35,510 nt of DNA from an uncultured Lentisphaerales bacterium (GCA_943788985.1 CALSSJ010000047.1:1-35510), one strand, 5' to 3'. Positions 823 through 33,300 are shown, counted from the first letter of the stretch. The notes: generated by a model not told the origin, from the letters alone. Made by a program: numbers and translations.

Positions 823-2292
823 ATGCACTTTACCAGCGCCTTTCTTGTTGCGATGGTCGCAACCTTTACTTACGCCCAGAACATGACGCCGGTCTGGGCA
901 GTCATGCCCGACGATCTAGCGCCGAAAGCGATTGATCCAGTCGACCCTGATAATGGGCAGCTGATCGTCTTCGTGCGCCCGAATCAGTCCGAGGTCGACA
1001 ATACCTTCCAAGAGGAAGTCCTGCCGGAAGTACGCAAAATTGCCGCTGAAATTGGCACCGCGCTGCATGTCTGGGATAGCCGCCTTGGCAGCCCTGAGGG
1101 AATAACGATCACGCCGAGCATCGTCTTCGAGAATTCCCGCGGGCGCTCGGTGTACCAAGGCCGTTATCGCAACTTGGACCGCATTCGCACCTTTATTCGT
1201 ACCTCACGCTACGTGCCCCGAGGCGACAGCCTGCGCGAGTGGTCGAACATTCCAGTCTGGACCAACGGCCGCGCTCACCTGATCGCACCGATCAAAGTCA
1301 GCTCTCTCGGCGGCACACTGCCAGAAGAGTACTGCGAGAAGCTTTGGCAGCAGGACACCCGCCACTGGGTGGACGAAGGCTTGGTCAAATTCTGGAATAA
1401 GGAGACCTACATGCAAGGCTCCATGGACCGGCTGTTCTACATGGATTTCTACCCGTGGCTCGGCGAGGACGGGACGCTGCATGTATCTGCCTCGCTGTTT
1501 TCGCAATTTCACTGCAAGAAGCCAGTCTTCACCACCGGCGACACTCCATTCAAAGGTCCGTGGAAATACCGGCGCTGGATCTTCCGCCGCGCAGCCCGCG
1601 CGCTCGAGGACGCCGTGGCAGTCACCATGGCCGATCCATCGCTCGGCGATGGCTTTGACATTGTCGAGTCCTACATGTGCAAGTTCCGCTGGGCTGCCCT
1701 AGCAATGCCCGTGCCTGCCCCGGCAGAGAACGCCCCGCTGGCGGTCGCCCCGAAGCTGCCCACATCCTACAGAGTTGCGAACTCCGCAAATCTGCCGCCG
1801 CAGGTGCAGTTCGCCTTTCCTGCCCCGCTCGATGGCCATCGCGGTGAAGCGCAGGGCGTCAGCGGTACACTCAATATCCCTGGACTGGACATCAACAAAG
1901 CCAGCGGCATCATCACCGTGGACGTAGGCCGCCTCACCATGGGCGACTCTGAGTTGGACGCAGTGATTCGCGGCAGCTTGTATCTGGATGCGAAGACGCA
2001 CCCAAAGGCAAGCTTCGCAATCAAGTCGCTCGTTGCAGAACAGCCTCTGACGTACGGCGTGCAGGTCCCGACAGAGATGAGTGGCACCTTCACCATGAAA
2101 GGAAAGCCGAGCCAGCTGACGCTACCTAGCTTTCTGGAAGCCGTCGTCATGGAGAATGGCAAGCCCGCCGTCATCCTGACCAGCGGTTTTGACGTGAATC
2201 TGAATGACTACGGCATTCCCCCTGCGGACGGACCAGAGCCAGAGAATCACACGCTAAATTTTGATATCCGCACGGTTTTCGCTGGACAATAG
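823..2292 (+). CDS. Exported multidomain protein with C-terminal YceI-like (polyisoprenoid-binding) domain
   Basis: Signal peptide. The C-terminal ~180 aa carry a YceI pattern (GITVDVGRLTMGDSELD..IRGSLYLDAKTHPKASF, GTFTMKG, F.VNLNDYGI). The N-terminal part resembles a thioredoxin-like fold (GITITPSIVF) with no CxxC. Confidence 0.7.
   Translation: MHFTSAFLVAMVATFTYAQNMTPVWAVMPDDLAPKAIDPVDPDNGQLIVFVRPNQSEVDNTFQEEVLPEVRKIAAEIGTALHVWDSRLGSPEGITITPSIVFENSRGRSVYQGRYRNLDRIRTFIRTSRYVPRGDSLREWSNIPVWTNGRAHLIAPIKVSSLGGTLPEEYCEKLWQQDTRHWVDEGLVKFWNKETYMQGSMDRLFYMDFYPWLGEDGTLHVSASLFSQFHCKKPVFTTGDTPFKGPWKYRRWIFRRAARALEDAVAVTMADPSLGDGFDIVESYMCKFRWAALAMPVPAPAENAPLAVAPKLPTSYRVANSANLPPQVQFAFPAPLDGHRGEAQGVSGTLNIPGLDINKASGIITVDVGRLTMGDSELDAVIRGSLYLDAKTHPKASFAIKSLVAEQPLTYGVQVPTEMSGTFTMKGKPSQLTLPSFLEAVVMENGKPAVILTSGFDVNLNDYGIPPADGPEPENHTLNFDIRTVFAGQ
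1775..1789 (+). repeat. Dispersed 15-bp quasi-palindrome TTGCGAACTCCGCAA (exact copy)
   Basis: Read directly; lies inside the YceI-domain gene (V-A-N-S-A-N). Confidence 0.85.
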
Positions 2293-2294
2293 CC

Positions 2295-3581
2295 CTGCAA
2301 CAGCCCTGGAGTTTCACGGACGCTGAGGCGTTCCTAGAGGATCTGTGCCGAGGCGGCGTAAAGCTGGGTCTCGAGAACACCAGCGAGCTGCTGGCTGCGT
2401 TGGAGAATCCGCAACGCCAGCTGCCCGCGATCCACGTGGCCGGCACCAACGGCAAAGGCTCGGTATGCTCGCTACTCTCGGCCGCGCTGACCAGCCAGGG
2501 GCTGCGGCCGGGCCTGTATACGTCCCCGCACCTCGTCTCAGTCCGGGAACGCTTGCGAATTGGTGGTGAAGCAATCAGCGAAGCCAAGTTTGCGGAGATC
2601 GCAGCCGGCATCCGAGCAGACGCCGCACGGCTCTTCCCAGCCGTCGGCCCCACCCCGACCTTCTTCGAGTTTCTCACGGCCATGGCATGGCGCTGGTTTG
2701 CCCAGGAAAGTGCTAAGTTCGCAATCCTGGAAGTGGGCATGGGCGGCAGGCTGGACTCGACTAATGTCTGCGAGCCCGCGATTACGGTGATCACCTCAAT
2801 CGGGCTGGATCACATCGGCGCGCTGGGCAATACCCTGGCAGAGATCGCGGCCGAGAAGGCGGGCATTCTCAAGCCAGGCGTGCCATTGGTTTGCGGAGTT
2901 CGCAACCCTGAGGCGCGGGAGGTGATTATGGCCAGAGCCAGTGAGCTGCGGGTGCCGGTCTGGCAGCTGGGTGAGGACTTCGCGGTGTTGGCGACGGAGC
3001 CAACGGACGCTGGGCAGCAGGTGCAGCTACGCCTGCCGACCGGGCAATGTACTGCGGAGATCGCACTGCGAGGTTCGCATCAGGCAGACAATACGGCAGT
3101 GGCAGCGGCGACGCTGGCGCGGCTGGCTCGCCCGACTACCGGGCTAGAGCGAGCGCGTTGGCCAGGGCGTCTGGAGCAGCTGTCGAACACGGTGTTATTG
3201 GATGGAGCGCACAACATGGCTGCGATGCATGAGTTAGTGGCGGCACTTCCCGCGAACGAGCGCTATGTGGCACTGTTCGCTACGATGATTGACAAGGAGT
3301 GGCAGGAGATGTTGGCACTGTTGGCACCGCATCTTTGCGAACTCCGCATCACCCGGGCGGAAAACCCGCGGTCAGTGGATCCGCAGGTCGTGGCGCTGCA
3401 TGTGCGGGAGAAGCACCCAGCGCTGCAGGTGGTCACGGAGCCGGACGCCTATGCGGCAGCCGAGCTGATCGCGCAAGAGCAGCGACCTGCCCTGATCGTC
3501 GGGTCCCTGTATCTCGCGGGGGACGTGTACAGCGTCTTTCGCGGGAATGCACCGCCGCCGATCTACTGCGAATCAGGTTGA
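2295..3581 (+). CDS. folC: Bifunctional folylpolyglutamate synthase/dihydrofolate synthase
   Basis: Motifs IHVAGTNGKGS, GLYTSPHL, TFFE, EVGMGGRLDSTN, WPGRLE, LDGAHN and GSLYLAG. The homologous region extends upstream of the 2400 TTG (GVKLGLEN), and the likely start is CTG at 2295. Confidence 0.93.
   Translation: MQQPWSFTDAEAFLEDLCRGGVKLGLENTSELLAALENPQRQLPAIHVAGTNGKGSVCSLLSAALTSQGLRPGLYTSPHLVSVRERLRIGGEAISEAKFAEIAAGIRADAARLFPAVGPTPTFFEFLTAMAWRWFAQESAKFAILEVGMGGRLDSTNVCEPAITVITSIGLDHIGALGNTLAEIAAEKAGILKPGVPLVCGVRNPEAREVIMARASELRVPVWQLGEDFAVLATEPTDAGQQVQLRLPTGQCTAEIALRGSHQADNTAVAAATLARLARPTTGLERARWPGRLEQLSNTVLLDGAHNMAAMHELVAALPANERYVALFATMIDKEWQEMLALLAPHLCELRITRAENPRSVDPQVVALHVREKHPALQVVTEPDAYAAAELIAQEQRPALIVGSLYLAGDVYSVFRGNAPPPIYCESG
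2891..2905 (-). repeat. Dispersed 15-bp quasi-palindrome (exact copy, reverse orientation TTGCGGAGTTCGCAA)
   Basis: Read directly; lies inside folC (C-G-V-R-N). Confidence 0.85.
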
Positions 3582-3583
3582 TT

Positions 3584-3643
3584 GGACAAGAAAAATTAGG
3601 GGACAAGAATTTGCTACGCCCCAGACATGTGATGTTCTTGTCC
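3584..3643. repeat. REP-like inverted repeat or possible bidirectional terminator between convergent genes
   Basis: GGACAAGAA at 3584-3592 and 3601-3609, with inverted copy TTCTTGTCC at 3635-3643. Confidence 0.55.
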
Positions 3644-3673
3644 TGAATATCTTCCCATCCCAGGAAGGAATTT

Positions 3674-5983
3674 CTATTTTTTCTGGTCTTTCTGGTCTTT
3701 CTGGTCGTCAGGGATGTCGCTCCAAGGATGCTCGAAGGCTTGATTCAATAGCTCCAGCATGCGCTTGGCATCCGCATGGTCGGGATCCAACTCGAGGGTG
3801 CGCCGGTAAGAGATGCGGCTGTTTTTGTATTCTTTGAGCCGCAACTCTGCGGTACCGCGGTTGGCCCAAGCGGTCACCGAGGCGGGGGCCAATTCAGTGG
3901 CCGTGGTGAAAGCCTGTAGCGCCTCTCGCAGCCTGTTTAACTGAAAAAGCGCGCCGCCAAGGTTCAGGTTGGCCTCCAAGGAGTTCGGCTGTGCAGCAAT
4001 GGCCTGTTCTAAATCCTCCACGGCTGTGGCCCAGTCTGACTGGCAAATAGCCAGCATTCCGCGCACGTAGGGAACCAGCACATGATCGGCACCTGCCGCG
4101 ATAAACTGACGATAGTGGCCAGCGGCTAGGTCCATCGCACCGTGAGTGCGGTACATATCACCAACCCCGAGCCGAAGATCGAGGGCACTGCTGTCCGCCC
4201 GGATAGCCGCTAGATAAGCCTTTTCCTGGGCCGCCGGATCTGCGTTCTCCGATTCCGCCATCACCCAGAGCCGCTGTGCATCGGTTACGGTCGGATTCTT
4301 GGCAGCCAGAGCACGAGCCTCATCGGCAGCAGTGCTGTCGCCCTCGGCAAGACGAATCCTGAGCAGCCCGATGGCGGCACTGAGGTCGTCGGGAAACTGG
4401 CCGTATAGCTCTCGAGCCGCCGCGAAGTTCCCAGTGCCAAGCGCGAGATCGGCGCGCGCGAGCTGGATGGACTTGTTCCCAGCGTTGCCTTGCAACAGCT
4501 CCCGGGCTGCCTCTGGATCCCCGTGGCGTGCAAGCGCAGTCGCGCGATGGACCAGCAACTCGCTGTTTCGTGGATCGAGCTCGAGGGCTTCGGCGTACAG
4601 CTTGCTGGCCTGCTCCCACTGCCCCATGGCAAAGGCGAAGCAGGCGCGGGCTTCGAGTGCAGATGCCTCCGTGCGACTGGCGCAGAGTTGGTCCAATTCC
4701 CGCGCATTGTCGATGCGGCCAAGGTTTAGCAGCACTTTCATGCGGTTGGCCGGAAGCTCGCGATGATTGGGGTTCACGGTGATCACACGGTCGAAGGCTG
4801 CCAGCGCCTCCTGATCCTTCCCCACGGCCATGAGAGCCGTGCCAAGGTTGAGCAGGCTGACATCATGCCGCGGGTGTTTGCGCACGGCATCCTCCCACAA
4901 CGTCTGCGAACTACGCCAGACCGCGCTGCGTTGCCACGAAATAGCGCAAAGAATGAGCGCAACCACCGGCAGCACGAAGCGGTCTCCACGACGCGCCAGC
5001 CAGGTTGCGAACATCGCAAACGGACCAATTGCGGCGATGTAGAGATGGCGATCGCCAGTCCCATGGTCGAGTGGAAGAATGCACAGGGCAGGGAGCAGCG
5101 CTGCCGCGAACCAGAGCAGCGGTGCGGCACCGGCGTGTTTGCGACGTACGCAAAAAATGACGGTGGCGACCACCAGGACACCGCTGATCATGGCCCAGGC
5201 GGGGATGTCTAGCGTGGGATACACCGCGCAGAGCTGGAACGGCAGGACCAGATGGACGGCTGCCAGCCCAAGCGCATGAAATGGCATACTCCCGCCTCCG
5301 GCATGCGCCTCGGCGATCGCGGCCACGTCTCGAACGACCAGCCCAAGCAGCAGCACGGCGACGGCGGCTAGGGGAAGCAGTTGGTAGATGCTGCGAGCTG
5401 CGGGCCTGGGCGCGGCTCTCAGAGAAATCCACAGCAGGGGCAGAACGGCACCGAGGGGGCTAGACAGCATGGCCAGCAGTGCCAGCCCGCAAGCACCCGC
5501 AAGCCAGCCGCGGCCTGGTCGTAGCCAGCAATAGGTGGCCGCAAACAGGAAGAATGCGAACAGGCCAAACTCTCGTCCGGCGATCCAAATCACGGGTTCA
5601 ACATTAACTGGATGCACAATAAACAGCAGCGCGGTGCCAAAGGCTGCGGCGGTCGCGATATTGCTCTTGTCGGCAAGCAGAAGGCGGATCACAAGAAAGA
5701 GAAGCACAGCACTGAGCGCATGCAGAAGTACGTTCACGGCACGATGGCCGGCGGGACTCTCCCCCCAGAGACGCCAATCCACCGCGTGGCTTAGGTCTCG
5801 CAGAGGTTGGTACCAGTAGCCGTTCTCGGGCACAAAGAGGCCGGGAAGCGGCTCGCCTTGGATTCGATGGTTCTGCACGATGAGGGCTGGATCATCCCAG
5901 TTCGTGAACGGGAAACCAAGGCGCGGACCGAAGAGCGCGAATGGCGTGATGAGCAATATGGCAATGGCGATTTTGCGATTCAT
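3674..5983 (-). CDS. TMTC-like multi-pass membrane glycosyltransferase (GT-C type) with C-terminal TPR array
   Basis: N-terminal NWDD, YQPLRDLS, GHRAVNVLLH, HPVNVEPV.WIAGR, GDRHLY and WRSSQTLW motifs with about 11 hydrophobic segments, followed by many TPR repeats. Confidence 0.8.
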   Translation of the reverse strand: MNRKIAIAILLITPFALFGPRLGFPFTNWDDPALIVQNHRIQGEPLPGLFVPENGYWYQPLRDLSHAVDWRLWGESPAGHRAVNVLLHALSAVLLFLVIRLLLADKSNIATAAAFGTALLFIVHPVNVEPVIWIAGREFGLFAFFLFAATYCWLRPGRGWLAGACGLALLAMLSSPLGAVLPLLWISLRAAPRPAARSIYQLLPLAAVAVLLLGLVVRDVAAIAEAHAGGGSMPFHALGLAAVHLVLPFQLCAVYPTLDIPAWAMISGVLVVATVIFCVRRKHAGAAPLLWFAAALLPALCILPLDHGTGDRHLYIAAIGPFAMFATWLARRGDRFVLPVVALILCAISWQRSAVWRSSQTLWEDAVRKHPRHDVSLLNLGTALMAVGKDQEALAAFDRVITVNPNHRELPANRMKVLLNLGRIDNARELDQLCASRTEASALEARACFAFAMGQWEQASKLYAEALELDPRNSELLVHRATALARHGDPEAARELLQGNAGNKSIQLARADLALGTGNFAAARELYGQFPDDLSAAIGLLRIRLAEGDSTAADEARALAAKNPTVTDAQRLWVMAESENADPAAQEKAYLAAIRADSSALDLRLGVGDMYRTHGAMDLAAGHYRQFIAAGADHVLVPYVRGMLAICQSDWATAVEDLEQAIAAQPNSLEANLNLGGALFQLNRLREALQAFTTATELAPASVTAWANRGTAELRLKEYKNSRISYRRTLELDPDHADAKRMLELLNQAFEHPWSDIPDDQKDQKDQKK
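3680..3706. repeat. 9-bp tandem repeat x3 (TTTCTGGTC) encoding DQK-DQK-DQK at the TPR protein C-terminus
   Basis: Three exact units read directly from the sequence. Confidence 0.9.
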
Positions 5984-6080
5984 CTCTATAACATCGGGAC
6001 CAGTTGCGACAGGTCCAGTCGACTGGCGAGATATCGCAAAATATCTATTACTTTTCTAACTCGATGTCAGCAATGGACTT

Positions 6081-8792: not shown

Positions 8793-9445
8793 CCCGCGCT
8801 GAACGGGTTGCGAAGTTCGCAGCCACAGACATCTATCCGGTCACCTGCGAGGTCCTCTCTGCCGGTCGCACCGACTTGGAGATCCTCAGACAGGTGGCCC
8901 ATGGCGGAGCCAAAGTCATTCAATTGCGTGACAAAACCTCCAGCCGACGCGGCCTCTACAAGAAGGCGGCAGCGTTCCGGGAACTGACAGCTGAACTGGG
9001 CATGCTCCTGATCATCAACGACTACGTGGACATTGCCTTGGCGGTCGATGCCGATGGCGTACATCTCGGCCAGGGCGACCTCCCGATCGAGGTGGCTCGG
9101 CAACTGGCTCCCGAGCAGATCATAGGCTCGTCCTGCCACTCACTACCGGATATCCACGAAGCCATGCGTCTGGGCGCAGACTATACCAACCTCGGCCCAG
9201 TGTTCGCCACCCAGACCAAGGACACCCCGGTCGTCCCGTTGGGGCTGGATCTGGTGCGCGAGGCGCACGCAAAGTTCAGCCACCCCGTGACCGTCATGGG
9301 CGGCATCAAGCTCCACCATGTCAGCGACCTAGCAGCCGCTGGGGCCCGCCATCTCGCAGTCGTAACCGCAGTCACCCAGGCCGATGATATCGCAGCCGAG
9401 ACTGCCGTCTGGCGCAACGCAATCCAAACAGCAATGGCCGGTTGA
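8783..9445 (+). CDS. thiE: Thiamine-phosphate synthase
   Basis: Motifs IQLRDK, LIINDYVDIALAVDADGVHLGQGD, IIGSSCHS, GPVFATQTK and MGGI. Start is ATG 8783 or GTG 8789. Confidence 0.93.
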   Translation: MAVTRAERVAKFAATDIYPVTCEVLSAGRTDLEILRQVAHGGAKVIQLRDKTSSRRGLYKKAAAFRELTAELGMLLIINDYVDIALAVDADGVHLGQGDLPIEVARQLAPEQIIGSSCHSLPDIHEAMRLGADYTNLGPVFATQTKDTPVVPLGLDLVREAHAKFSHPVTVMGGIKLHHVSDLAAAGARHLAVVTAVTQADDIAAETAVWRNAIQTAMAG

Positions 9446-17914: not shown

Positions 17915-19773
17915 GCGCCCACCTTCAAGGTAGCACGGCAGCGCGCGATGCGGTTTAGATGTTCCTTGTTCCAGGCCGGCAACGCGTTGCTCGCGGTCAG
18001 ATTATCCAAGCGCGCTAACCGCGCCTGCGCACGCTGAAATTCCCCTTCCTCCAGCATGCTCTCCAGACCCGAAACCACACCCTCCACGACGATACCCACA
18101 ACGTCTTTCGGCAAGCCCGGCCCATTCGCCAGACGCGCCAACAGAGAATCAATCAAAGCCTGATAGCGCACATCGAACACTCCGTTCCACGTCACTGAAG
18201 GATGATTGCGGACCGCGTCCAGCAGCTTCAGATGTTCAATCGCCCCGGCCAGCCCGCCAGCATCGAGGCGTTGTTCGCAAGCAGCCAGGCAGCTGTCAAT
18301 CAGGTACGTGACCCGCAGTCCCAGCAGTTGCGTCCGCAACGCCCGAAACGCTGCCCGATCATCGTCCGTCATAGCCATGGCACCGTGCACTTTCGCAGGC
18401 AGTCCCCGATATGTCTGCAGCGTCTTGAACGCGTCTGCAAAATCGCCAGAGTCCATCCCCACCTTCAGACGCAGCAGCCAGCTCTCAGCCAGCGCCTGGC
18501 GTACGTCATCCGGCACCGCGCTCGCGCGACGCGTGATCGCCTCGTTGACTGTCGCCTGCACAGCCAGTGTGGCCTGCCGGCAATCCTTCCATAATAACGT
18601 CGGATCCAAACTCGCCCGTTCAGCCTCTAGAATTGCGCGTTGCGAAGTCCGCATCGCCACGATCTGCGCTTGCCCGGCATCCACAAGCCGTTGCACATCA
18701 CGCACCTCATGCATCCGCCCACCGACCAAGAGCGAGCTCAGCACCATCACCACCGCTAGCAGACCCGCGGCCAGCGGTTTCCGCCGTGCATACTTGGTCA
18801 CATGATCGTAAATCGTGCTTCGCCGCGCCGAAATCGGCTGCAAGTCAATCGCCCGTTGCACGTCCGCATGCAGCAGCTTTGCATTGTCGTAGCGGGCGTT
18901 TGGCGCCTGCGCCAGTGCCTTCCCGCAAATACTGGCGAACTCCTTCGAATCGGTAATTGGCGGAAATTCAGCAGCCTTGATCGCCGCCAGCGTCTCGCGC
19001 ACAGTTTCCTTCGCGAACGGGTGCGTGCCGGTCACAATCTCATACAAGATGATGCCGATTGCGAACACGTCCGACTGATAGCCGATACGCTTCACCATCC
19101 CCATCGCCTGCTCCGGGGACATATAGTTTGGCGTGCCCTTCGCTTGTCCGGGCTGCGTCAAGTTCAGATCTCCTTCATTCACTGCCAGCTTGCAGGTCAC
19201 CGACGCTGGCGTTTCGTCGTCCGCGTTGAAATCCTTCGCAATCCCCCAATCCATTACGTAGATCTGGTCAAACTCTTCCACCATGATGTTCTCTGGCTTG
19301 ACGTCCCGATGCGCCACGCCCTTGCTGTGCGCAAACGCCACAATCTCGCAGACACGCTCCATGATCCGCAACAACCGCCGCCGCGGCCATTCCGCCGGCT
19401 TCTCCTTCGCCTCGCGCAGAATTTCCCGTAAGGTCAACCCGTCCACGCGCTCCATCGCAAAAAACAAAGCACCGTTCAGCACGCCGATGTCATGAATCGG
19501 CACGATCCCAGGATGATGCAAGCGGGCCGTAAGCATCCCCTCGCGCAAGAATCGCTGCACGGCCAAATCCGATTTATGCTGGCCGATCAGCAAAGATTTG
19601 ATCGCCACCTGTCGCCGCAAATGCGTGTCGATCGCGAGACTAACGGTGGCCTCCCCGCCGCGGCCGATCTCATCCAACAGTCGATACCGATCCCCAGCAT
19701 CTGGTAACGTCGCCCAGCGATCGTTCTTCAGTGCGCCGAGAGGCTTTGCCCGCTTGCGTACCGTGGCTGGCAT
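17911..19773 (-). CDS. Hanks-type Ser/Thr protein kinase with one TM segment and helical C-terminal domain
   Basis: IGRGG, VAIK, HPGIVPIHD, HRDVKPENIM, DWGIAK, GTPNYMSPEQ and SDVFAIG; TM segment LAAGLLAVVMVLSSLLVGG. Confidence 0.92.
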   Translation of the reverse strand: MPATVRKRAKPLGALKNDRWATLPDAGDRYRLLDEIGRGGEATVSLAIDTHLRRQVAIKSLLIGQHKSDLAVQRFLREGMLTARLHHPGIVPIHDIGVLNGALFFAMERVDGLTLREILREAKEKPAEWPRRRLLRIMERVCEIVAFAHSKGVAHRDVKPENIMVEEFDQIYVMDWGIAKDFNADDETPASVTCKLAVNEGDLNLTQPGQAKGTPNYMSPEQAMGMVKRIGYQSDVFAIGIILYEIVTGTHPFAKETVRETLAAIKAAEFPPITDSKEFASICGKALAQAPNARYDNAKLLHADVQRAIDLQPISARRSTIYDHVTKYARRKPLAAGLLAVVMVLSSLLVGGRMHEVRDVQRLVDAGQAQIVAMRTSQRAILEAERASLDPTLLWKDCRQATLAVQATVNEAITRRASAVPDDVRQALAESWLLRLKVGMDSGDFADAFKTLQTYRGLPAKVHGAMAMTDDDRAAFRALRTQLLGLRVTYLIDSCLAACEQRLDAGGLAGAIEHLKLLDAVRNHPSVTWNGVFDVRYQALIDSLLARLANGPGLPKDVVGIVVEGVVSGLESMLEEGEFQRAQARLARLDNLTASNALPAWNKEHLNRIARCRATLKVGA

Positions 19774-20567
19774 TAGCCGGCGTCCACGAACGCTCGAACC
19801 GTTCCGATCGTGTCGGCAGCCCGCACGAAAGTTTCACCGATCAGAAAGCGTCGAATCCCAACTTTTGTGAACTCCGCAATATCCGCTGGCTGCTTCAGCC
19901 CGGATTCCGCCACGATAGCCGTGCCCTCCGGTGCCAGCTTGCTCAGCTCGAAGGTGATCTCCTGATTGGTCGAGAACGTCTTCAAGTTTCGATTATTGAT
20001 TCCCAGCAGGTCAAACTCAACGTTGGCTACAGCCCGATCAATCTCTTCGGCGGTGTGCGTTTCTGCCAGCACATCCATGCCCAGCTCCTGCGCCAACTGA
20101 GACAGCTCCCGCGCCTGCGAATCGCTGAGAATCGCCAAGATCAGCAAGACGCAGTCCGCGCCGAGCGCCCGCGATTCATACAGCTGGTATGAATCGATGA
20201 TGAAGTCCTTGCGCAGCATAGGCAGCTTCACCTGCTCTCGTACGACTGCGAAGTCCGCATCCGCGCCATAGAAGAAATGTTCGTCGGTAAGCACCGACAA
20301 CGCGGCCGCACCGCCATTTTCATACCTGCTCGCCTGCTCGGCGGCATCCAGACCCGGAAACAAAAGACCTAGCGACGGGGAACCGCGCTTCACTTCTGCG
20401 ATGATCGCAGCTTCCGTGGCAGCAGTCCGCGTGAGCGCAGTGGCAAAGCCACGGGTCGCGGGAGCCGCCTGGGCAAGCGCCAGCGTCTCCGCCGGAGACC
20501 GCTGTTGCTTCCGGTTCGCGATTTCGGTTTTCTTGTACGCGACGATTTCGTCGAGAATTGTAGTCAT
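19773..20567 (-). CDS. trpC: Indole-3-glycerol phosphate synthase
   Basis: MTTILDEIV, IIAEVKRGSPS, LSVLTDEHFF, LRKDFIID.YQ, GINNRNL, ESG and FLIGE. Confidence 0.95.
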   Translation of the reverse strand: MTTILDEIVAYKKTEIANRKQQRSPAETLALAQAAPATRGFATALTRTAATEAAIIAEVKRGSPSLGLLFPGLDAAEQASRYENGGAAALSVLTDEHFFYGADADFAVVREQVKLPMLRKDFIIDSYQLYESRALGADCVLLILAILSDSQARELSQLAQELGMDVLAETHTAEEIDRAVANVEFDLLGINNRNLKTFSTNQEITFELSKLAPEGTAIVAESGLKQPADIAEFTKVGIRRFLIGETFVRAADTIGTVRAFVDAG

Positions 20568-21699: not shown

Positions 21700-21714
21700 T
21701 TGCGAACTCCGCAA
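21700..21714 (+). repeat. Dispersed 15-bp quasi-palindrome TTGCGAACTCCGCAA (exact copy, intergenic)
   Basis: Read directly; lies upstream of rplU. Confidence 0.85.
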
Positions 21715-22931: not shown

Positions 22932-24142
22932 AAATTTTGGGTTTGGTCATCATGCTGCAAGTTTCTATGTTCAGCACATTTGCTGGCGACTTTGCTCTCG
23001 GGGTAGATGTCTTTCTGCGGGGCTACACGCAGTTAGTACAAGGCAAGAAAGTAGGCCTGATCACCAATCAGACCGGCAAGAACGCTGCTGGCCAGACCAC
23101 CATCGATCTGCTCTATGCCCATCCGGACGTGAATCTTGTCGCGCTGTTCTCCCCCGAGCATGGCATCCGTGGTGTCGTAGAAGCTGGCGAGCACGTCGAC
23201 GACGGAAAAGACTCCGGCACCGGCCTGCCCATCCATTCCCTCTATGGCGGCAGCCATCGTCCAGACGCCAAGGTGCTGGCCCAACTCGATGTCCTGATTT
23301 ACGACATCCAAGACGTGGGCAGCCGCGCCTATACCTACATCTGGACCCTGGCCGAGGCACTTGCCGCAGCGGGCGAACAGCATAAGACCGTGATCGTCCT
23401 GGACCGGCCCAACCCGCTGGCTGGCGGCGTGATCGACGGCCCCGTCACCCATGACGGCTGGGACTCATTCCTCGGTCTCTATCCGATCCCACGCGTCTAC
23501 GGCACCACCCCCGGCGAAATTGGCCGCTACTTCAATGCCGTCCACAAACTCAACTGTCGGCTCATCGTCATTCCTATGGCTGGCTATCGACGCTCCATGA
23601 CTTACGATCAGACCGGTCTGAACTGGATCGGCCCGAGCCCCAATATTCCCTCTGTGAACTCGGCCATCTGCTTCGCTGCCACCGGCACCATTGGCACGCT
23701 TGGAAACATGAACATCGGAATCGGCACTCGCTATCCCTTTCAGCTTGTCGGTGCCCCATGGCTCGATGCCCAGAAGTCTGCCGAAATCCTCAACAAGGCC
23801 AATCTTCCCGGCATAAAGTTTCTGCCCACCGAGTTCACCATGCCCACCGGTCCCTGGAAGGGCGAAGTCACCCGCGCAATTTTCCTCGGGGTTAGCGATG
23901 TTCGCAAGTTTCTGCCGTCCACCACCGAGTACGTGGTCTTGGACCACCTGCAGCGCTACTATCCAAGCCGCTTCAAATGGAATCCGGAGAAGTTTCGCGC
24001 CTTCGACGTCGCCATGGGCACCGACCGGGTCCGCAAGTGGTTGATGGCCGAGCAGGCCCCGCGGACCATGCTGAAAGCCTGGACACGCAATCAGCGCCTG
24101 TATCGTGGCGCGATCGACACCTACCGCATTTACCAAGATTGA
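22928..24142 (+). CDS. namZ: Exo-beta-N-acetylmuramidase NamZ family (DUF1343)
   Basis: VGLITNQTG, LFSPEHGIRG, SLYG, YDIQDVGSRAYTY, VLDRPNP, PSPNIP and PFQLVGAPW. Confidence 0.9.
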   Translation: MKILGLVIMLQVSMFSTFAGDFALGVDVFLRGYTQLVQGKKVGLITNQTGKNAAGQTTIDLLYAHPDVNLVALFSPEHGIRGVVEAGEHVDDGKDSGTGLPIHSLYGGSHRPDAKVLAQLDVLIYDIQDVGSRAYTYIWTLAEALAAAGEQHKTVIVLDRPNPLAGGVIDGPVTHDGWDSFLGLYPIPRVYGTTPGEIGRYFNAVHKLNCRLIVIPMAGYRRSMTYDQTGLNWIGPSPNIPSVNSAICFAATGTIGTLGNMNIGIGTRYPFQLVGAPWLDAQKSAEILNKANLPGIKFLPTEFTMPTGPWKGEVTRAIFLGVSDVRKFLPSTTEYVVLDHLQRYYPSRFKWNPEKFRAFDVAMGTDRVRKWLMAEQAPRTMLKAWTRNQRLYRGAIDTYRIYQD

Positions 24143-25530
24143 GCGACGCCCCCGAGCCACTGCCAGTCCAGATCGAGCGCCTCGCCGAAGATGGTCAGGG
24201 CATCGCCACTGTGGACGGTCGCGAGGTTCATGTGCGCGACGCCGTTCCCGGCGATCTCGTCACCCTCAGCGCAGTGCGCAAGCGCCGCAAACGCCGCCGT
24301 GAAAGCAGCATTGACGAATTACACACGGCTGGCGACGACCGCGCCACGCCACGCTGCGCGCACACCACCGATTGCGGCGGCTGCCGCCTGCAGCACGTAG
24401 CCTACGAAGCACAGCTCCGGTTCAAGGAGTGCGAACTCCGCAATCGCCTCGAGCCGCTATTTGGCCAGGACCAACCCGAATGGCGCACTATCCTCGGCTG
24501 CGACAATCCCTTCGAGTACCGCAACAAGCTCGAGTTCAGCTTCTGCGATCAGCGCTGGCTCTCCCAGCAGGACATCGACTCAGACGCCACCTTTACCCGG
24601 CTTCCAGCTGCCGGCTTTCATCCACAGGGGCAGTTCGCCAAGATTCTCCATCTCGACCGCTGCCATCTCATGCCCGCTGTAGCCGACTCGCTCCGCCTGC
24701 AGATGTACGACTACGCGATCGCGCACGAGCTCCCGTTCTACAACGTTCGCGAGAAGCACGGGATCATGCGGAACCTGATTGTGCGCCAGACCACACGCGG
24801 CGAGACTATGGCCATCGCCTCGTTTGGCGAAGACCACCCTGCCCTCGCTGGCTTGCTGGACCAGCTCGCCGCCACCGAAGGCGTCACCTCCGTACACAAG
24901 GTGATCAATCCCAAGGGCAACGACAGCATCTACGATCTGCCCCTGGAGCACACCCACGGTGAGCCGTCCATCCTCGAAGACCTCGGCGGCTCCGTCCTCT
25001 GCGTCCGGCCCAAGTCCTTTCTCCAGCCCAATTCTCGCCAGGCCCGCATCCTCTACGACGTAATTGCGGAATTCGCAAAACTCGAGGGGCACGAGAAAGT
25101 GCTGGATCTCTACTCCGGGATTGGCTCGATCAGTCTGATGATTGCCCGCCAGGCCGGGCATGTACACGGCATCGAAGAAGTCCCAGACGCGGTCCGCGAC
25201 GCAAACGAGAACGCGGCCCGCAACGAGATCGAGAACATCTCATTTGCCACCGCCAAGGTCGAAAGCGTGTTGGCAGATCATACTGACAACGTAGACCTTG
25301 TAATCTGCGATCCGCCCCGTGCCGGCATCCATCCCGCGGCCATTCGCGCCATGATACAGCTCGCCGCTCCGCGCATCATCTACGTGAGCTGCAACCCCAA
25401 ATCACTTGCGCGCGACCTGCAGGCCCTATCCCTGCACTACCGCTGCGTACGCGTTCAGCCCGTCGATATGTTCCCCCACACGCTGCACCTCGAGACCGTC
25501 GTCGAGCTGGTGAAGCGCGAGCTTACCTGA
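24139..25530 (+). CDS. rlmD: 23S rRNA (uracil-C5)-methyltransferase RlmD/RumA
   Basis: TRAM domain, C...CGGC Fe-S motif, YRNKLEFSF, LDLYSGIGSI, DPPRAG, YVSCNP and QPVDMFPHT.H.E; TTGA overlap start at 24139. Confidence 0.92.
   Translation: MSDAPEPLPVQIERLAEDGQGIATVDGREVHVRDAVPGDLVTLSAVRKRRKRRRESSIDELHTAGDDRATPRCAHTTDCGGCRLQHVAYEAQLRFKECELRNRLEPLFGQDQPEWRTILGCDNPFEYRNKLEFSFCDQRWLSQQDIDSDATFTRLPAAGFHPQGQFAKILHLDRCHLMPAVADSLRLQMYDYAIAHELPFYNVREKHGIMRNLIVRQTTRGETMAIASFGEDHPALAGLLDQLAATEGVTSVHKVINPKGNDSIYDLPLEHTHGEPSILEDLGGSVLCVRPKSFLQPNSRQARILYDVIAEFAKLEGHEKVLDLYSGIGSISLMIARQAGHVHGIEEVPDAVRDANENAARNEIENISFATAKVESVLADHTDNVDLVICDPPRAGIHPAAIRAMIQLAAPRIIYVSCNPKSLARDLQALSLHYRCVRVQPVDMFPHTLHLETVVELVKRELT
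25064..25078. repeat. Dispersed 15-bp quasi-palindrome variant TTGCGGAATTCGCAA
   Basis: Read directly; lies inside rlmD (I-A-E-F-A-K). Confidence 0.8.
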
Positions 25531-28110: not shown

Positions 28111-28119
28111 GCCCGCCCG

Positions 28120-28492: not shown

Positions 28493-28507
28493 TTGCGAAG
28501 TTCGCAA
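28493..28507. repeat. Dispersed 15-bp palindrome variant TTGCGAAGTTCGCAA
   Basis: Read directly; lies in decayed or non-coding DNA upstream of the serpin gene. Confidence 0.8.
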
Positions 28508-28683: not shown

Positions 28684-29853
28684 ATGGCTATTCTGCAACA
28701 GATTCTCGGCGCGATTCAAAGACGCGACAGCTCGCTCAGCCTGCCAATTGCAAACTCCGCAACCTCGGCCAGTAGGTTCCGCGAATTCGGCTTCGCCCTT
28801 CGCGGTGCACTGGCCAAGCCGCAGGGCAATGTCTTTTTTTCTCCGGTCGGCATCAGCCTCTGCCTAAGCATGTTGATCCCCGCAGCCCGTGGCCGTACGC
28901 GCGACGAACTCCGTATCGTTCTAGGTGTATCCACAGCTGATTGGGATGCCTTGGGGGGCCAGCTTGCAGAGTTAGCAAAGGACGGCGTGCTCGCGCTCAC
29001 AAATGGACTCTTCGCCCAGAGCGGGACCTCATTTCTGCCAGACTTCGAGGCGGGCTTGGGCCGATCGTTGGGCGCAAGCCCGCAAGTCTTGGATTTCCAC
29101 GAACAACCGCAGGAGAGCACCCAGCAACTGAACCACTGGTGTGCCAGCGAGACCGGGGGCTTAATCGAGCAGATCACAGAACGTGAATGTCTCTCAAACG
29201 CACGGCTGGTACTGGCAAATGCAACCTGTTTTCACGGAGACTGGGACCGGCCGTTTCGCAAACGCTCCACTCGCTGGGAGACCTTTCGAGGCAGCAAGAA
29301 GAGCAAGGTCCAGATGATGCGTCAGACCCTGACAGCCCGCTACGCTAAAAACGCGGACTTCGCAGCGGTCGACCTTCCTTACTTTAGCGGGCACCGAATG
29401 CTGATCGTGCTGCCAGAGCCCGATAAAACGGAAGAGGTCTTCGCGGCTTTCGACGCAAAGGCCTTCGAGGCGGTGTTTGGCACGTTCTCGAATCGGCTGG
29501 TCGATCTAACGCTTCCTCGCTTCACCATGGACGAAGAGACGGCGGATCTGGCCCAGGCCCTGGTGAAGTTGGGCATCCGTGAGGCGTTTGCGGAGTCCGC
29601 AGATCTGTCCGGAGGGACGACCGGGACGTTGGTAAGCCACGTCCTTCATCGTTCGCACCTGCACGTCACCGAGCAAGGGACGGAAGAAGCGGCGGTCGCG
29701 GCAACCGTAAGGCGCAAAGCCAACCCACGAGGACGTGATCTAAATCCCATAGACTTTCGGGTCGGCCACCCCTTTCTGTTTGTGGTCTGCGCACCGCGCA
29801 CACGCACCCCGGTATTTATCGGGCAAGTCCGAAATTTGCCGTCCGGCTACTAA
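28684..29853 (+). CDS. Serpin (serine protease inhibitor fold)
   Basis: NVFFSPVGIS, A.G.T.DEL, LNHW...TGGLI, LVLANATCFHGDW..PF, VQMMRQ, LPRF, TEQGTEEAA and FRVGHPFLFVV....T.TPVFIGQV. Confidence 0.92.
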   Translation: MAILQQILGAIQRRDSSLSLPIANSATSASRFREFGFALRGALAKPQGNVFFSPVGISLCLSMLIPAARGRTRDELRIVLGVSTADWDALGGQLAELAKDGVLALTNGLFAQSGTSFLPDFEAGLGRSLGASPQVLDFHEQPQESTQQLNHWCASETGGLIEQITERECLSNARLVLANATCFHGDWDRPFRKRSTRWETFRGSKKSKVQMMRQTLTARYAKNADFAAVDLPYFSGHRMLIVLPEPDKTEEVFAAFDAKAFEAVFGTFSNRLVDLTLPRFTMDEETADLAQALVKLGIREAFAESADLSGGTTGTLVSHVLHRSHLHVTEQGTEEAAVAATVRRKANPRGRDLNPIDFRVGHPFLFVVCAPRTRTPVFIGQVRNLPSGY

Positions 29854-30369: not shown

Positions 30370-30395
30370 GAGAATCTCCTTCTGGTGTTATTGGG

Positions 30396-33300
30396 TTAGG
30401 TGAGAATACTTTCTTGGCGCGATACTTCGGGGTCTGCTGCTCGGGATGCTGCTTTTCGACCAAAGCGGTAGAAAACGGCAGGCCGCACAATGAAGTCCAA
30501 GAGTGTACTCGAAATCAGGCCGCCAATAATAACGGTTGCGACTGGGTATAGGATCTCTTTGCCCGGTTGACCTGGGGCGAGCGCCAGCGGGATCAGGGCG
30601 ATTCCACTGGTGAGTGCCGTCATCATGACCGGGACCATTCGCTCTTGCCCGGCGAGCACAATGACGTCGGGGCCAAAGGGCTTTCCTTCGGCTTTCATGA
30701 GATGAATGTAATGATCCAGTAGCAAAATGGCATTGCGCGCAGCGATCCCGCCGAGCGAGATCAGACCTACGAGGGTCGCGACCGACAGCGTTTGGTGCGT
30801 TATGATGACGAACGCGACTGCGCCGACGAACGCCATGGGGATGCTGGCCATCACCTGCAGGCTCAGGTTCAGCGAACCAAAGTGCATATACAGGATGAGG
30901 ATCATGCACAGGAACGAGAGAACACTCAGGACGAGAATTCGCTTGGTAGCCTCCTGCTGCGCTTCAAACTGGCCGCTTATCTTGAGCGAGTAGCCACCTT
31001 TCTTAGCGAGGTCCTGGCGCACGGGCTCAAGGGCGCGATCCACGTCGGCCACGACTTCTCCCAGGGAGCGGCCAGCAACGTTGTGCTGGACGACAATGCG
31101 CCGCCCCACATTCTCGTGCTTGATATTGTTAGAGGTCATCGTCTGCTGCACCGCAGCCACATCCCCCAACCGGATCAGCTTGCCGTTGTGCTTGCGGATG
31201 TAGAGATTTTCGAGATCCTGCAACGACCGCCGATTCGCCTCCTTCAAGCGCAGCACGATTGGATAGGCATAGCGGCCATCGACCAAACGCGATATAGCCT
31301 CACCGCCAAGCGACAGCTCGACCGTGTCGCCAACGTCTTCGACGGCGAGTCCGTGGCGCGCCAGAAGTTCACGATTTGGCACAATGGCGATGTTTGGCAC
31401 GAGTACCTGGGGTTCAACCATCAGGTCCTTTACGCCATCGATTTCCTTCAGGCGGCCCTCCACGTCTTTGGCAACCGTGCGCAGCGTCTCCAGATCAGGG
31501 CCGTATATCTTAACTGCCACCTGGGCCTTGACACCAGAGAGCATCGCGCTGAGCAGATGGGCTAGCGGTTGGTCAACCGCAAAGGCAACACCGGGAAATT
31601 CCTCGCCGATTCGCGTGCGGACCTCGTCGATTATCTCTTCGCGGTCGCGCTCCACCGTTGGGTCGAAGGAAACGATTACCTCGGAACTGTTCACACCTTC
31701 GGCGTGCTCATCTCCCTCGGCTCTGCCAGTACGGCGCGTGACGTACTTGACCCCGTTGACCTTAATCAGCAGCTTTTCCAGCCGCAGGCCATAGGCGTTG
31801 GAGGTGGCCAGACCGGTATCCGGTGGCAACACCAGATTGATCTGCGCGACACCTTCGTTGAACGGAGGCAGGAATTGCGATCCCGCAGTAAGCAGCAGAT
31901 ACAAGGCAATTCCGACCAAGACAACCAATGTGGCGAGAACCGTCCGTGACCAGCGAATGCTGTTGCGAATTGCGAACTCCGCAATCACCTTGAGCTTGCG
32001 GACGACAAACGTGTCCTTGATCTCGCCCTTTGCCATAGTGTTGGGCAGCAGCAAGTAACACAACGCAGGTGTAACGGTCAAGGATACAAATAGCGATGCC
32101 GTGACGCTGACGATGTAGGCGATACCAATCGGCGAGAATAGCTTACCTTCCATGCCAGTCAGGAAAAACAGTGGCACATAGACCACGACGACGAGCATTG
32201 TGCCGATCAAGATCGGTCTTAGCACTTCACTACAGGCGTCATAGATGACCTGAATGGCGGGCCGCTGCTCGCCCTTATCAAGCCGGATGTTTTGTCCGAG
32301 CCTCCGGTAGACATTCTCCATCCCGACGATTGCGTCATCCACCAGCGCGCCAATTGCCACGGCCAGACCGCCAAGCGTCATGGTATTGATCGACAGTCCC
32401 AGTACCGAAAAGACAATCGCCGTGACTGCAATCGAAATCGGAATGGCCGTCAGCGTAATGAACGTCGTGCGCCAGTTCATCAGGAAGATGAACAAAATCA
32501 CCACGACCATGATGCCGCCATCGCGCACAGCCTCTTCCACATTGGCGATCGCGCGATTGATGAAGTCGGCTTGCTTGAACAAGTGCGGATTGATCTGCAG
32601 GTCTTCATCCATACCTGCCATCGACAGCTCAAGTGCGGCCTCCACCTCCTTGCTTAAGCGAATCGTGTCATAGCCGGGCTGCTTCATGACAATCATTGCG
32701 ACACCAGGCCGCCCCCCGACGCCGACCTCGCCGACTTTGATCGCTGCGGGGCCGAACTGGACGTCAGCTACATCCCGAATCCGGACAGGCCGTAGATCAT
32801 GCGGCAGCACGACCGCGTTCTCCAATTCCGCCTTATTGGTCAACAGCCCAGTTACGGTTATCGCCGGGGCCTTGGTCCCGATATTGATAAACGCGCCACT
32901 GCGATTCTGATTATTCCGGGTGACTGCGCTGGCGACATCGTTGACGGTCACGTTAAACGTGCGCAGCTTCTCGGCGTCCATGACAACTTGCAGTTGCTTG
33001 CCTGCACCACCGCCCACGATGACTTTGGCTACGCCTGCGATCGAGAGCAGGTCGTATTTCAGTTTGTAGTCCGCCAATGAACGAATGTCAGCCGTCGACA
33101 GCTTGCCGGTCTTGCTGCTCAAGCCAATGATCTGCACCTGGCCCATGATGCTGGAGATAGGCTCCATCGAAGGCGCAACGCCTTCGGGTAGGCGCTCCTT
33201 TGCCAGCTGCAGCTTTTCCGATACCACCTGGCGATTGCGGTAGATGTCCGTGCCCCAGCCAAACTCGACCTTTATCACGGACAACCCCAGCCCTGAAGAC

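Follow-up and report, generated by a model that had tools for sequence, protein, structure and literature searches.

The window analysed here, a stretch of 35,510 nucleotides (35.5 kb) from an uncultured Lentisphaerales bacterium, raises the question why one 15-bp near-palindrome recurs in unrelated genes and in the DNA between them, and what might read it. Nothing betrays a machine that distinguishes self from foreign DNA as clearly as a word iterated across a genome, and few such words are understood: USS, DUS and Chi, and HIP1 in part. In the window, TTGCGRANTYCGCAA has 23 matches (6 perfect, 8 with one mismatch and 9 with two mismatches; Table 1), which fall in all three codon frames and in two spacers. 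The genes concerned are unrelated to each other and encode a YceI-like protein, a Mur ligase, a TPR protein, ThiE, a Ser/Thr kinase, TrpC, an RNA methyltransferase, a serpin and AcrB. Dinucleotide shuffles of the window contained a perfect copy in 0 of 100 cases (mean 0.00), while one-mismatch copies averaged 0.03 (largest 1) versus the 8 observed, and matches of any class 0.66 (largest 3) versus 23. The coordinates in the preliminary description, which had been made from the sequence by manual scan, were all correct (6 perfect, 8 one-mismatch and 7 two-mismatch copies recovered); two-mismatch copies at 848 and 2400 were added to its list. It had also located no cognate protein in the window, and the gene annotation of the window agrees.

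Table 1. Copies of the word in the 35.5-kb window, with their gene context
Position	Copy	Context
848..862	two-mismatch copy, newly listed	
1775..1789	perfect copy TTGCGAACTCCGCAA, the genome's preferred asymmetric form	in YceI-like gene 823-2292 (+), codon phase 1 (V-A-N-S-A)
2400..2414	two-mismatch copy, newly listed	
2590..2604	two-mismatch copy	
2710..2724	two-mismatch copy	
2891..2905	perfect copy, asymmetric form reversed	in Mur-ligase-like gene 2400-3581 (+), phase 2
3335..3349	one-mismatch copy (last base)	in Mur-ligase-like gene 2400-3581 (+), phase 2
5005..5019	one-mismatch copy (position 9 T>A)	in TPR gene 3674-5983 (-), phase 1
5139..5153	two-mismatch copy	
8808..8822	one-mismatch copy	in ThiE gene 8744-9445 (+), phase 1
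17653..17667	two-mismatch copy, A7>T variant (recurrent genome-wide)	
18640..18654	one-mismatch copy	in Ser/Thr kinase gene 17911-19773 (-), phase 0
19865..19879	one-mismatch copy	in TrpC gene 19773-20609 (-), phase 1 (I-A-E-F-T)
20246..20260	two-mismatch copy	in TrpC
21700..21714	perfect copy	spacer, 20 bases behind DUF481 gene 20505-21680
23893..23907	two-mismatch copy	
24429..24443	one-mismatch copy (first base)	in RNA methyltransferase gene 23977-25530 (+), phase 2
25064..25078	perfect copy, central A (TTGCGGAATTCGCAA)	in RNA methyltransferase gene 23977-25530 (+), phase 1
28493..28507	perfect copy, AA-type palindromic form	spacer between NnrS-like ORF 27712-28425 and serpin gene
28748..28762	one-mismatch copy	in serpin gene 28684-29853 (+), phase 1
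28964..28978	two-mismatch copy	
29588..29602	one-mismatch copy, GG-type form	in serpin gene 28684-29853 (+), phase 1
31970..31984	perfect copy, asymmetric form	in AcrB-family gene 30396-33551 (-), phase 1

Throughout the genome assembly (4.58 Mb, 48 contigs, 83.6% complete) the word is a near-palindrome of 13-15 bp with the consensus T-TGCGRA-S-TYCGCA-A and a 7-1-7 layout, represented by 403 perfect 15-mers, 1,007 cores GCGRASTYCGC and approximately 1,600 recognisable copies. Copies with 0, 1 and 2 mismatches number 380, 600 and 630, as compared with 0, 1 and 30 for the reversed control. The preliminary description had proposed to abandon the motif if its enrichment vanished outside the window or if codon-shuffled sequences gave similar counts. 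Perfect copies were detected on 44 of the 48 contigs, four being without, and amino-acid-preserving codon shuffles of all called genes of the genome (n=30) yielded 10.6 ± 3.0 13-mers versus 657 observed and 2.4 15-mers versus 302.

The unit is the whole word of 13-15 bp and not a shorter core. Its enrichment over an order-3 Markov model grows with length, from 1.0x for RASTY via 1.4x (7-mer), 5.8x (9-mer) and 46x (11-mer) to 794x for the 13-mer and 6,497x for the 15-mer; the excess of GRASTYC equals the count of full words, no inner core is enriched by itself, and the bases flanking the 15-mer are random. When other spacings and arrangements were compared, the half-sites formed pairs in inverted orientation and at a single distance only (898 pairs versus at most 14 elsewhere), with positions 2-6 and 10-14 of the word nearly invariant. 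The asymmetric form TTGCGAACTCCGCAA makes up 216 of the 380 S-centred perfect copies, versus 22 of the mirror-centre form. It is equally common in both orientations, and the counts (105/92/88/86) reveal no gene-strand bias. For the word at large, 250 copies in one orientation face 244 in the other. The spacing between copies is overdispersed: bins of 20 kb have a mean of 3.7 copies with a variance of 7.8, and 22 of them are empty versus 5.2 expected. Pairs in tandem at a distance of 16 bp show a slight excess.

The word occurs without regard to location or strand. Called genes hold 81% of the copies at 0.22 per kb, tandem, convergent and divergent spacers have 0.18-0.22 per kb, and this comparison of called genes with spacer classes gave no preference for spacers, promoters or terminators. 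Genic 13-mers favour one frame, Ala-x-x-Ala being the reading of 465 out of 656, and through the word Ala-[EDNK]-[SF]-Ala has become three times as common in the proteome. There are 803 A[EDNK][SF]A tetrapeptides versus 243 expected (3.3x), while the mirror control tetrapeptides occur 216 times versus 243. The word's codons are used in 503 of the 803 (63%), about 1% being expected from codon usage. Furthermore, the residues beneath the word are less conserved, with identities of 29, 25 and 32% versus gene medians of 49, 35 and 44%. The codon shuffles, the copies in all frames, the density in spacers and the codons of the tetrapeptides thus uphold the original claim of a signal at the DNA level that protein coding does not explain.

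Comparison with relatives shows that copies arise in place by substitution and turn over between lineages. Gap-free alignments were obtained in 102 of 118 comparisons of sites with their orthologues in three relatives, and none of these 102 orthologous 15-mers was a copy, the fewest mismatches being 4. Of the 102, 25 come from a relative that bears the motif itself (G028). The TrpC copy at 19865..19879 has neither a counterpart copy nor an indel in five orthologues. Copy density follows GC content (rho 0.58). The first 86.6 kb of contig C12 contain no copy at up to 2 mismatches; this island has 53-56% GC and encodes sulfatases, fucosidases and GH20/GH95 enzymes of glycan degradation as well as a DDE transposase. 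In 28 kb of a Mu-like phage (fragment G306) there are 9 copies with at most one mismatch, partly inside its head-protease and Gam genes; a process or selection inside the cell explains these more easily than DNA uptake would.

The word is restricted to one class, where it occurs in lineage dialects: a GG type, an AA type and the asymmetric type of this genome. If three perfect copies are the minimum for a carrier, 44 of the 301 genomes from this class qualify and none of the 234 from the phylum's other classes does. The named carriers are Lentisphaeria/Victivallales MAGs and Lentisphaera marina, in agreement with the PVC lineage first proposed, and at least one cultured species carries the word. 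In one relative (G042) its 58 perfect copies are spread along the whole of two large contigs. The GG form accounts for 118 of 133 perfect copies in G017, 53 of 61 in G032 and 123 of 183 in G116, and the AA form for 10 of 11, 37 of 42 and 37 of 47 in family f25. The asymmetric form reaches 216 of 403 in this genome versus 6-18% in ten relatives, most relatives favouring palindromic dialects. No replacement word was found in 400-kb samples of two motif-free relatives (G004 and G020). In the literature searched the word was not found in a bacterial context, which bears out the view of it as undescribed, and no match to an already characterised site emerged.

Based on these patterns we tentatively regard the word as a self-DNA tag that resembles uptake sequences and spreads by molecular drive, a reading to which we give somewhat less than even credence. 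A sequence-specific reader, likely part of a DNA-uptake or other dsDNA-handling machine, would favour word-bearing DNA, and near-matches mutating towards the word would be over-transmitted by homologous recombination within the population. Under such a drive the word would build up wherever protein coding tolerates it, in proportion to the time the DNA has resided in the lineage. That the tag reader acts in DNA uptake is presumptive, as is its identity. An uptake or self-marking signal had been offered as the second option in the preliminary description, and it fits every population-genomic hallmark that could be tested. With slightly more reserve, it seems possible that Lentisphaeria possess a new sequence-specific self-DNA recognition, most simply a DNA-uptake specificity with a 15-bp 7-1-7 signal, a new kind of receptor and at least three dialects. 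If true, this would add a first example from elsewhere to the uptake specificities of Proteobacteria and Cyanobacteria, and the PVC superphylum would gain its first; co-variation of dialects with receptor residues would point to the receptor.

The genome encodes DprA, three secretins and numerous ATPases of the T2SS/T4P kind, some of them of PilT size. No ComEC turned up in the assembly, which is 83.6% complete, and tblastn with the proteins of three relatives likewise gave none. ComEC is present in 39 of 41 relatives, carriers and non-carriers alike (12 of 12 other carriers among the 41 genomes), and therefore does not track the word. The sole HhH (ComEA-like) protein found is equally present in motif-free families, and no report of natural transformation in Lentisphaeria was found in the literature searched. 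A second ComEC was tested as reader and rejected. Other candidates were rejected as well: a ParB/Noc-type reader (PF02195, ParB_N, in none of the 13 carriers and, among all 41 genomes, in 10, mostly as weak matches), Vsr repair (PF03852 in one of 13 carriers, G032, not found in this genome and present in several motif-free ones) and a type IV secretion reader (VirB4-type genes in one of 41 genomes).

The copies might instead form an array of binding sites under weak per-site selection for an abundant intracellular DNA-binding protein, either a nucleoid-associated or segregation factor or a Chi-like self marker for a repair or defence nuclease, which we consider rather unlikely. The strict pairing of inverted half-sites at fixed spacing, their nearly invariant positions and the palindromic dialects of most relatives speak for such an array, and the 7-1-7 layout would suit a winged-helix or ribbon-helix-helix dimer. 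Fur-family 7-1-7 operators and the 15-bp CodY box likewise have a single central base flanked by inverted arms of 7 bases each, a geometry which implies that a 7-1-7 site is readable by a winged-helix dimer. A symmetric homodimer, however, cannot prefer an asymmetric word, so that the dimer first envisaged as reader is consistent with the palindromic dialects of the relatives but not with the favoured word of this genome. The slight excess of tandem pairs and the host-like density in the Mu-like phage, which is to be expected if the mark benefits resident or infecting DNA, would also fit an array, and since the class is mostly without ParB, another organising system is conceivable. Motif-free sister lineages are also without ParB, though, and the word is therefore no substitute for the missing protein. 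Against an array stand furthermore the complete lack of positional conservation between lineages (0/102), the indifference to spacers, promoters and terminators, a spacing that is overdispersed and not regular, and the failure to find a candidate protein. The more specific proposal of a chromosome-organising site of the matS, parS or Noc kind could not be maintained, given approximately 1,600 copies instead of tens, no macrodomain clustering and no ParB_N in the 13 carriers.

It appears improbable that the word is a HIP1-like palindrome of unknown function, part of which is read by an orphan methyltransferase while mismatch correction restores the whole. It is palindromic, hyper-abundant and in-frame within genes, patchy within one taxon and present in alternate forms, and its GG dialect contains GASTC, which is presumably compatible with a GANTC methylation site. 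The favoured form of this genome is without GANTC, however, and since no short inner core is enriched alone, the unit cannot be as small as a methylation site of 4-6 bp. In addition, Vsr was found neither in this genome nor in 12 of 13 carriers and occurs in several motif-free genomes. As HIP1 has lately been proposed as an uptake signal, this explanation partly merges with that of an uptake tag. We deem it very improbable that the word works as RNA, folding into a hairpin with a 5-bp stem and a 5-nt loop that an RNase or RNA-binding protein would recognise. The palindrome yields the same RNA word from either strand, so that the missing strand bias does not exclude such a role, but the stem is just 5 bp long and no base-pair covariation links position 6 to position 10, where combinations that cannot pair (A...C / G...T) are commonest (608 of 1,007 cores versus 494 expected under independence). 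Moreover, density is equal in spacers and genes, and the dialects alter both arms symmetrically at the DNA level. It is hardly credible that the word is a mini mobile insertion (REP/MITE-like), that it results from selection on proteins for Ala-x-x-Ala or that it stems from faulty assembly: 15 bp correspond to five codons, a multiple of three, and one frame dominates, but these readings are refuted by the synonymous shuffles, which abolish the word, by the orthologues without a gap and by the copies in all three frames and, at equal density, in spacers. Dozens of independent assemblies carry the word.

The word thus presents a long, near-palindromic form confined to one class of a little-studied superphylum, in which the identity of the reader and the gating of gene exchange become directly addressable. 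If the self-DNA tag reading holds, a drive at the DNA level would have altered the peptides at several hundred positions of a single proteome. In practice the word may serve as a marker of native versus foreign or mis-binned DNA in Lentisphaeria MAGs; in this genome, the four contigs and the 86-kb island are without it.

With matS/MatP, parS/ParB, Noc and SlmA sites the word shares a palindromic arm-spacer-arm structure of 12-16 bp that is tolerated in genes, whereas those sites number tens, are regional and have known readers, and the word occurs everywhere, is not positionally conserved and, in contrast to parS and Noc, is accompanied by a ParB_N gene in none of the 13 carriers searched. Fur and CodY operators differ in being promoter-located regulon sites; the word shows no promoter preference and has 100 times more copies. 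Unlike REP, REPIN and MITE elements, which are extragenic, inserted and of a longer unit, it is 81% genic and gap-free in 102 of 118 comparisons, with random flanks. Products of very-short-patch repair (CCWGG-type) compare poorly, Vsr occurring in one of 13 carriers and not in this genome. HIP1 (GCGATCGC) and the alternate cyanobacterial palindromes are similar in being abundant genic palindromes, taxon-restricted with exceptions and long of unknown function. HIP1, however, is an 8-base perfect palindrome with known methylation sites, as opposed to 13-15 bases with an inner 5-mer at 1.0x here, and it correlates with VirB4-type type IV secretion, which was found in one of 41 genomes here. The accounts of HIP1 drawn on here describe a hyper-abundant palindrome inside genes (PMC5861425, PMC4390886), lately linked to transformation (PMC13756078; bioRxiv 10.1101/2024.09.10.611283) and now proposed as an uptake signal (PMC13756078).

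For the uptake sequences of Haemophilus and Neisseria, the account drawn on here gives 1,471 and 1,892 copies per ~2 Mb and, for USS and DUS, a coding footprint in preferred frames with over-represented peptides and poorly conserved residues (Findlay & Redfield 2009, PMC2817400); dialects are described for the DUS of Neisseriaceae (PMC3630211). The word of Lentisphaeria differs from these in its 13-15 specified bases in a 7-1-7 near-palindrome, USS and DUS being asymmetric words of 9-12 bases, in a density that those of Haemophilus and Neisseria exceed by a factor of 3-10, and in its occurrence in the PVC superphylum, where sequence patterns suggest the putative tag and ComEC was not found in the present assembly. 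To our knowledge, none of the known uptake sequences is palindromic. Like USS (Pasteurellaceae) and DUS (Neisseriaceae), however, the word occurs hundreds to thousands of times, in either orientation, with a preferred genic frame, over-represented peptides and poorly conserved residues, shares their point-substitution origin and lineage dialects, and is missing from recently acquired DNA, here the 86.6-kb low-GC island of C12.

Six perfect matches to the near-palindromic word (13-15 bp, two arms of seven bases around one central base S; searched as TTGCGRANTYCGCAA) were detected in the window, and none of 100 dinucleotide-preserving shuffles contained any. Allowing up to one mismatch the search returned 14 copies (shuffle mean 0.03, maximum 1), and up to two mismatches 23 copies (shuffle mean 0.66, maximum 3). 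The coordinates in the preliminary description were all right, and its seven two-mismatch copies were all recovered together with two additional ones. The window encodes ordinary, mutually unrelated functions, namely YceI-like, Mur-ligase-like and TPR proteins, ThiE, a nickel superoxide dismutase, RNase R, a Ser/Thr kinase, TrpC, NamZ, an RNA methyltransferase, a serpin and AcrB. Twelve of the best 14 copies lie within nine genes, covering all three codon phases and reading in the Ala-x-x-Ala phase in eight cases, and two lie in spacers. The positions of these and further features are compiled in the following table.

Positions of word copies and of other loci discussed in the text
Sequence	Position	Feature
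Window	848	additional two-mismatch copy
Window	2400	additional two-mismatch copy
Window	21700	copy in a spacer
Window	28493	copy in a spacer
Window	9442-9936	nickel superoxide dismutase (Sod_Ni) gene, immediately after thiE
Contig C10, subject genome	313,600-327,000	tandem array, ~37-39 copies of a 335-337-bp unit
Contig C12, subject genome	1-86,600	word-free accessory glycan-degradation island
Contig C31 (L162/L292), subject genome	127,427-129,175	P0001, protein with helix-hairpin-helix (HhH) domain
L158 (G017)	3910-8811	ComEC-like protein and partner
L159 (G005)	4351-9260	ComEC-like protein and partner
L160 (G011)	2282-7047	ComEC-like protein and partner
L288 (phage G306)	15831-16382	183-aa early-region ORF

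The enrichment described for the window, which makes up contig C47 in its entirety, persists in the assembly to which it belongs (the subject genome; 4.58 Mb, 48 contigs, 58.3% GC, 83.6% complete), which holds 403 perfect 15-mers on 44 of its 48 contigs and 1,007 cores of the form GCGRASTYCGC. Counted against TTGCGRASTYCGCAA, copies with 0, 1, 2 and 3 mismatches number 380, 600, 630 and 778, compared with 0, 1, 30 and 357 for the reversed, non-complemented control, so that about 1,600 copies are recognisable (one per 2.8 kb). When k-mers were screened without bias, TGCGGAGT and TGCGAACT came out as the 8-mers with the strongest over-representation, and 12-mers of the word reached about 390 times the expectation of an order-3 Markov model. 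Under the same order of model, the enrichment grows with word length. RASTY stands at 1.0x, and the 7-, 9-, 11-, 13- and 15-mers at 1.4x, 5.8x, 46x, 794x and 6,497x, respectively. Every inner word is in excess by the number of full words; the enriched unit is the entire word. The bases on either side of the terminal T and A are random, and the word is thus not a piece of any longer repeat.

The only pairing of TGCGRA half-sites is that of inverted repeats with a single spacing, which accounts for 898 pairs; no alternative arrangement within 60 bp yields more than 14. Where a copy deviates at a single base, that base is hardly ever one of positions 2-6 or 10-14; positions 1 and 15 are altered most (345 of 600) and A/T swaps are frequent at positions 7 and 9. 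A replication polarity was considered and dismissed, as the ratio of 276:218 with GC skew points the way that the C-rich asymmetric form of the word, described below, would predict.

That protein coding does not explain the word, as the preliminary description had argued, is borne out by codon shuffling. Genes were taken from a crude caller of our own without validated annotation, which called 79% of bases coding. Thirty amino-acid-preserving shuffles of the synonymous codons within each gene yielded 10.6 +/- 3.0 13-mers (maximum 21) compared with 657 observed, and 2.4 15-mers (maximum 5) compared with 302. The word is a signal at the level of DNA. Of the copies with at most one mismatch 797 of 980 are genic, the density per kb being 0.22 in genes and 0.18, 0.22 and 0.19 in tandem, convergent and divergent spacers, respectively. 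No gene-strand bias of the copies was detected in the subject genome. Most of the 656 genic 13-mers (465) are read in the phase xTT GCG RAS TYC GCA Axx, and the other two phases account for 95 and 96. The word has also altered the proteins: A[EDNK][SF]A tetrapeptides occur 3.3 times as often as expected from the amino acid composition (803 versus 243), and 503 of the 803 are spelled with the codons of the word, compared with about 1% predicted by codon usage. No such enrichment is seen for the mirror control A[SF][EDNK]A (216 versus 243 expected).

Copies of the subject genome were furthermore mapped to putative orthologues from three relatives, represented by 400-kb samples; one of them carries the word (G028) and two do not (G004 and G020). 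The alignment was gap-free across the word in 102 of 118 comparisons, and none of these 102 orthologous 15-mers was itself a copy (0/25, 0/57 and 0/20 in G028, G004 and G020; fewest mismatches 4). The residues beneath the word were 29, 25 and 32% identical in the three comparisons, compared with gene medians of 49, 35 and 44%. In TrpC, the subject genome and the relative G017 each contain one copy, nine bases apart; both arose via amino-acid-changing substitutions, and four other orthologues have no copy at either position. Copies thus come about in place through point substitution, separately in each lineage, at sites where the protein tolerates them. No substitute word was found in the samples of the motif-free G004 and G020. 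In the sample of the low-GC genome G028 (L203-L222) the most over-represented word belongs to a different repeat of at least 18 bases, which contains CTACAGGTTCGGCTACAG and is present in about 14 copies.

Among 301 genomes sampled from the class, presumably Lentisphaeria, 68 contain one or more perfect S-centred copies, and of these 44 are carriers with at least three; the reversed control never exceeded two. The subject genome has the highest count of this sample (380). Carriers belong to the families f1, f3, f8, f9, f12, f13, f14, f16, f19, f20, f23, f24, f25, f27, f29 and f30, and all 13 genomes of f25 carry the word. The large families f7 (117 genomes), f6 (47), f11 (46) and f15 (9) do not exceed two copies per genome, and none of 234 genomes from other classes of the phylum reaches three. 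Among the matches listed, named records with the word are mostly Lentisphaeria/Victivallales MAGs, and four such genomes counted as a whole contain 58-194 copies. Reyranella appeared five times among the matches listed, but the one genome counted contains only three copies, and this lead was rejected.

The carriers differ in the dialect of the word. As a fraction of the perfect S-centred copies, the GG form TTGCGGASTCCGCAA accounts for 118/133 in G017, 53/61 in G032, 123/183 in G116, 24/39 in G005 and 29/70 in G048. In five f25 genomes the AA form TTGCGAASTTCGCAA makes up 10/11, 14/21, 25/34, 37/42 and 37/47 of these copies. The asymmetric form TTGCGAACTCCGCAA makes up 216 of the 403 copies in the subject genome and only 6-18% in ten relatives; the form with the mirrored centre, TTGCGAAGTCCGCAA, is present in the subject genome in only 22 copies. 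A symmetric homodimer bound to two independent half-sites can have no preference for one centre base in a mixed site, and the reader of this lineage therefore reads the word asymmetrically. The dialects speak for a specific reader protein with an evolving specificity.

Along the subject genome the copies are overdispersed (mean 3.7 and variance 7.8 per 20 kb; 22 of 207 bins empty versus 5.2 expected), and their density climbs with local GC content (Spearman 0.58). Contigs C9, C35, C37 and C45 contain no perfect copy. The block at the start of contig C12 (53-56% GC) lacks any copy at up to two mismatches. Its genes are all co-directional, and the 35 proteins scanned include seven sulfatases, three alpha-L-fucosidases, GH20, GH95 and rhamnosidase enzymes, sialate esterases and a DDE transposase. 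This accessory island was probably acquired horizontally and would serve the degradation of sulfated fucose-rich glycans. In G042, which holds locus L091 of Lentisphaera marina strain IMCC 11369, 58 perfect copies extend along the full length of both large contigs, and no matS- or parS-like clustering was seen. The words of the tandem array on contig C10 head the 15-mer enrichment list of the subject genome; since its period fluctuates by a single base up or down, the array may not simply be an in-frame protein repeat.

Two exact forms of the word match 36 and 60 stretches in IMG/VR (raw counts), and only two records are common to both scans. G306 is a 28-kb fragment (59% GC) of a Mu-like phage, with genes for a major head protein, protease, portal, terminase, MuA/MuB-like proteins and Gam. 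It contains nine copies at up to one mismatch, some within the protease and Gam genes, and has no blastn or tblastx match in the subject genome. G307 is a complete phage of 83 kb (70% GC) with three copies. It follows that phage DNA which is long-resident or co-evolving picks up the word. Three copies, two of which lie 18 bases apart, are found within a 330-base stretch of one early-region ORF of G306 without assigned function.

The reader was searched for among about ten hand-picked protein families in 41 relatives, 13 of which are carriers. ComEC was rejected as a correlate, as it is present in 39 of the 41 genomes irrespective of the word; in the subject assembly it was not found by family search and tblastn. 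The subject genome encodes other parts of an uptake machinery: DprA, a total of three secretins and numerous T2SS/T4P ATPases. A second long ComEC-like paralogue (944-1,214 aa, DUF4131 and Competence domains, beta-lactamase domain not found) and a conserved 682-aa partner at first seemed specific to carriers. The partner (665-693 aa) has no Pfam match, a hydrophobic C-terminal stretch and a GGHAGAA motif reminiscent of DHH/DHHA1 phosphoesterases. Its link to the word was rejected, as it occurs in only 11 of the 301 genomes of the class, including a motif-free one, and not in the subject genome. The only HhH hit, P0001 (at least 583 aa), consists mostly of disordered acidic and proline-rich low-complexity sequence with a ComEA-like HhH domain at the C-terminus. 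Related proteins of 680-1,005 aa are spread over the whole order. The protein is also found in the motif-free families f2, f4 and f5, and P0001 was discarded as the reader. ParB_N (0 of 13 carriers), Vsr (1 of 13) and the type IV secretion protein VirB4 (1 of 41 genomes) were likewise discarded. Genes with a ParB N-terminal domain were detected in 10 of the 41 genomes, most with weak scores; only two, with E values of about 1e-23 to 1e-25, resemble canonical ParB. A ParABS system may be lacking from most of the class. Autoregulation, with dense clusters of the word beside a small DNA-binding gene, was rejected as well, as the densest clusters lie inside housekeeping genes (MurC-like, BirA-like, FdhD-like and glycosyltransferase, names as read off the translations).

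The reading we rank first, albeit tentatively, is that of a self-DNA tag similar to uptake sequences which molecular drive would spread through the genome. Against it stand the absence of ComEC from the incomplete subject assembly, the lack of any competence gene that tracks the word, its palindromic nature, the host-like density in one Mu-like phage, and the fact that no report of competence in this group was found in the literature searched. An intracellular reader, either a nucleoid protein or a factor by which a repair or defence nuclease recognises self, is ranked second and seems rather unlikely. An origin in methylation or repair of the type discussed for HIP1 appears improbable and is ranked third, weakened by the enrichment of the whole word and by the absence of Vsr.

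In the openly accessible literature searched neither the 11- and 13-mers in a bacterial context nor anything relevant on palindromes, uptake sequences or competence in Lentisphaerae, Verrucomicrobia or Kiritimatiellae was found. New in the present analysis are the amino-acid-preserving null, the proteome footprint and the orthologue turnover test, furthermore the word-free island, the restriction to one class and the three dialects, and the rejected links to ParB, Vsr, type IV secretion and the ComEC paralogue. For the uptake sequences of Pasteurellaceae and Neisseriaceae (USS/DUS), Findlay & Redfield (PMC2817400) report a frame bias, inflated peptides, a location at poorly conserved residues and an absence from genes without homologues, and the word agrees with this pattern point for point. 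Dialects are known for DUS as well (PMC3630211), and HIP1, the other near relative of the word, is now itself proposed as an uptake signal (PMC13756078). It is this match with USS/DUS, the DUS dialects and the uptake proposal for HIP1 that places an uptake-like tag first.
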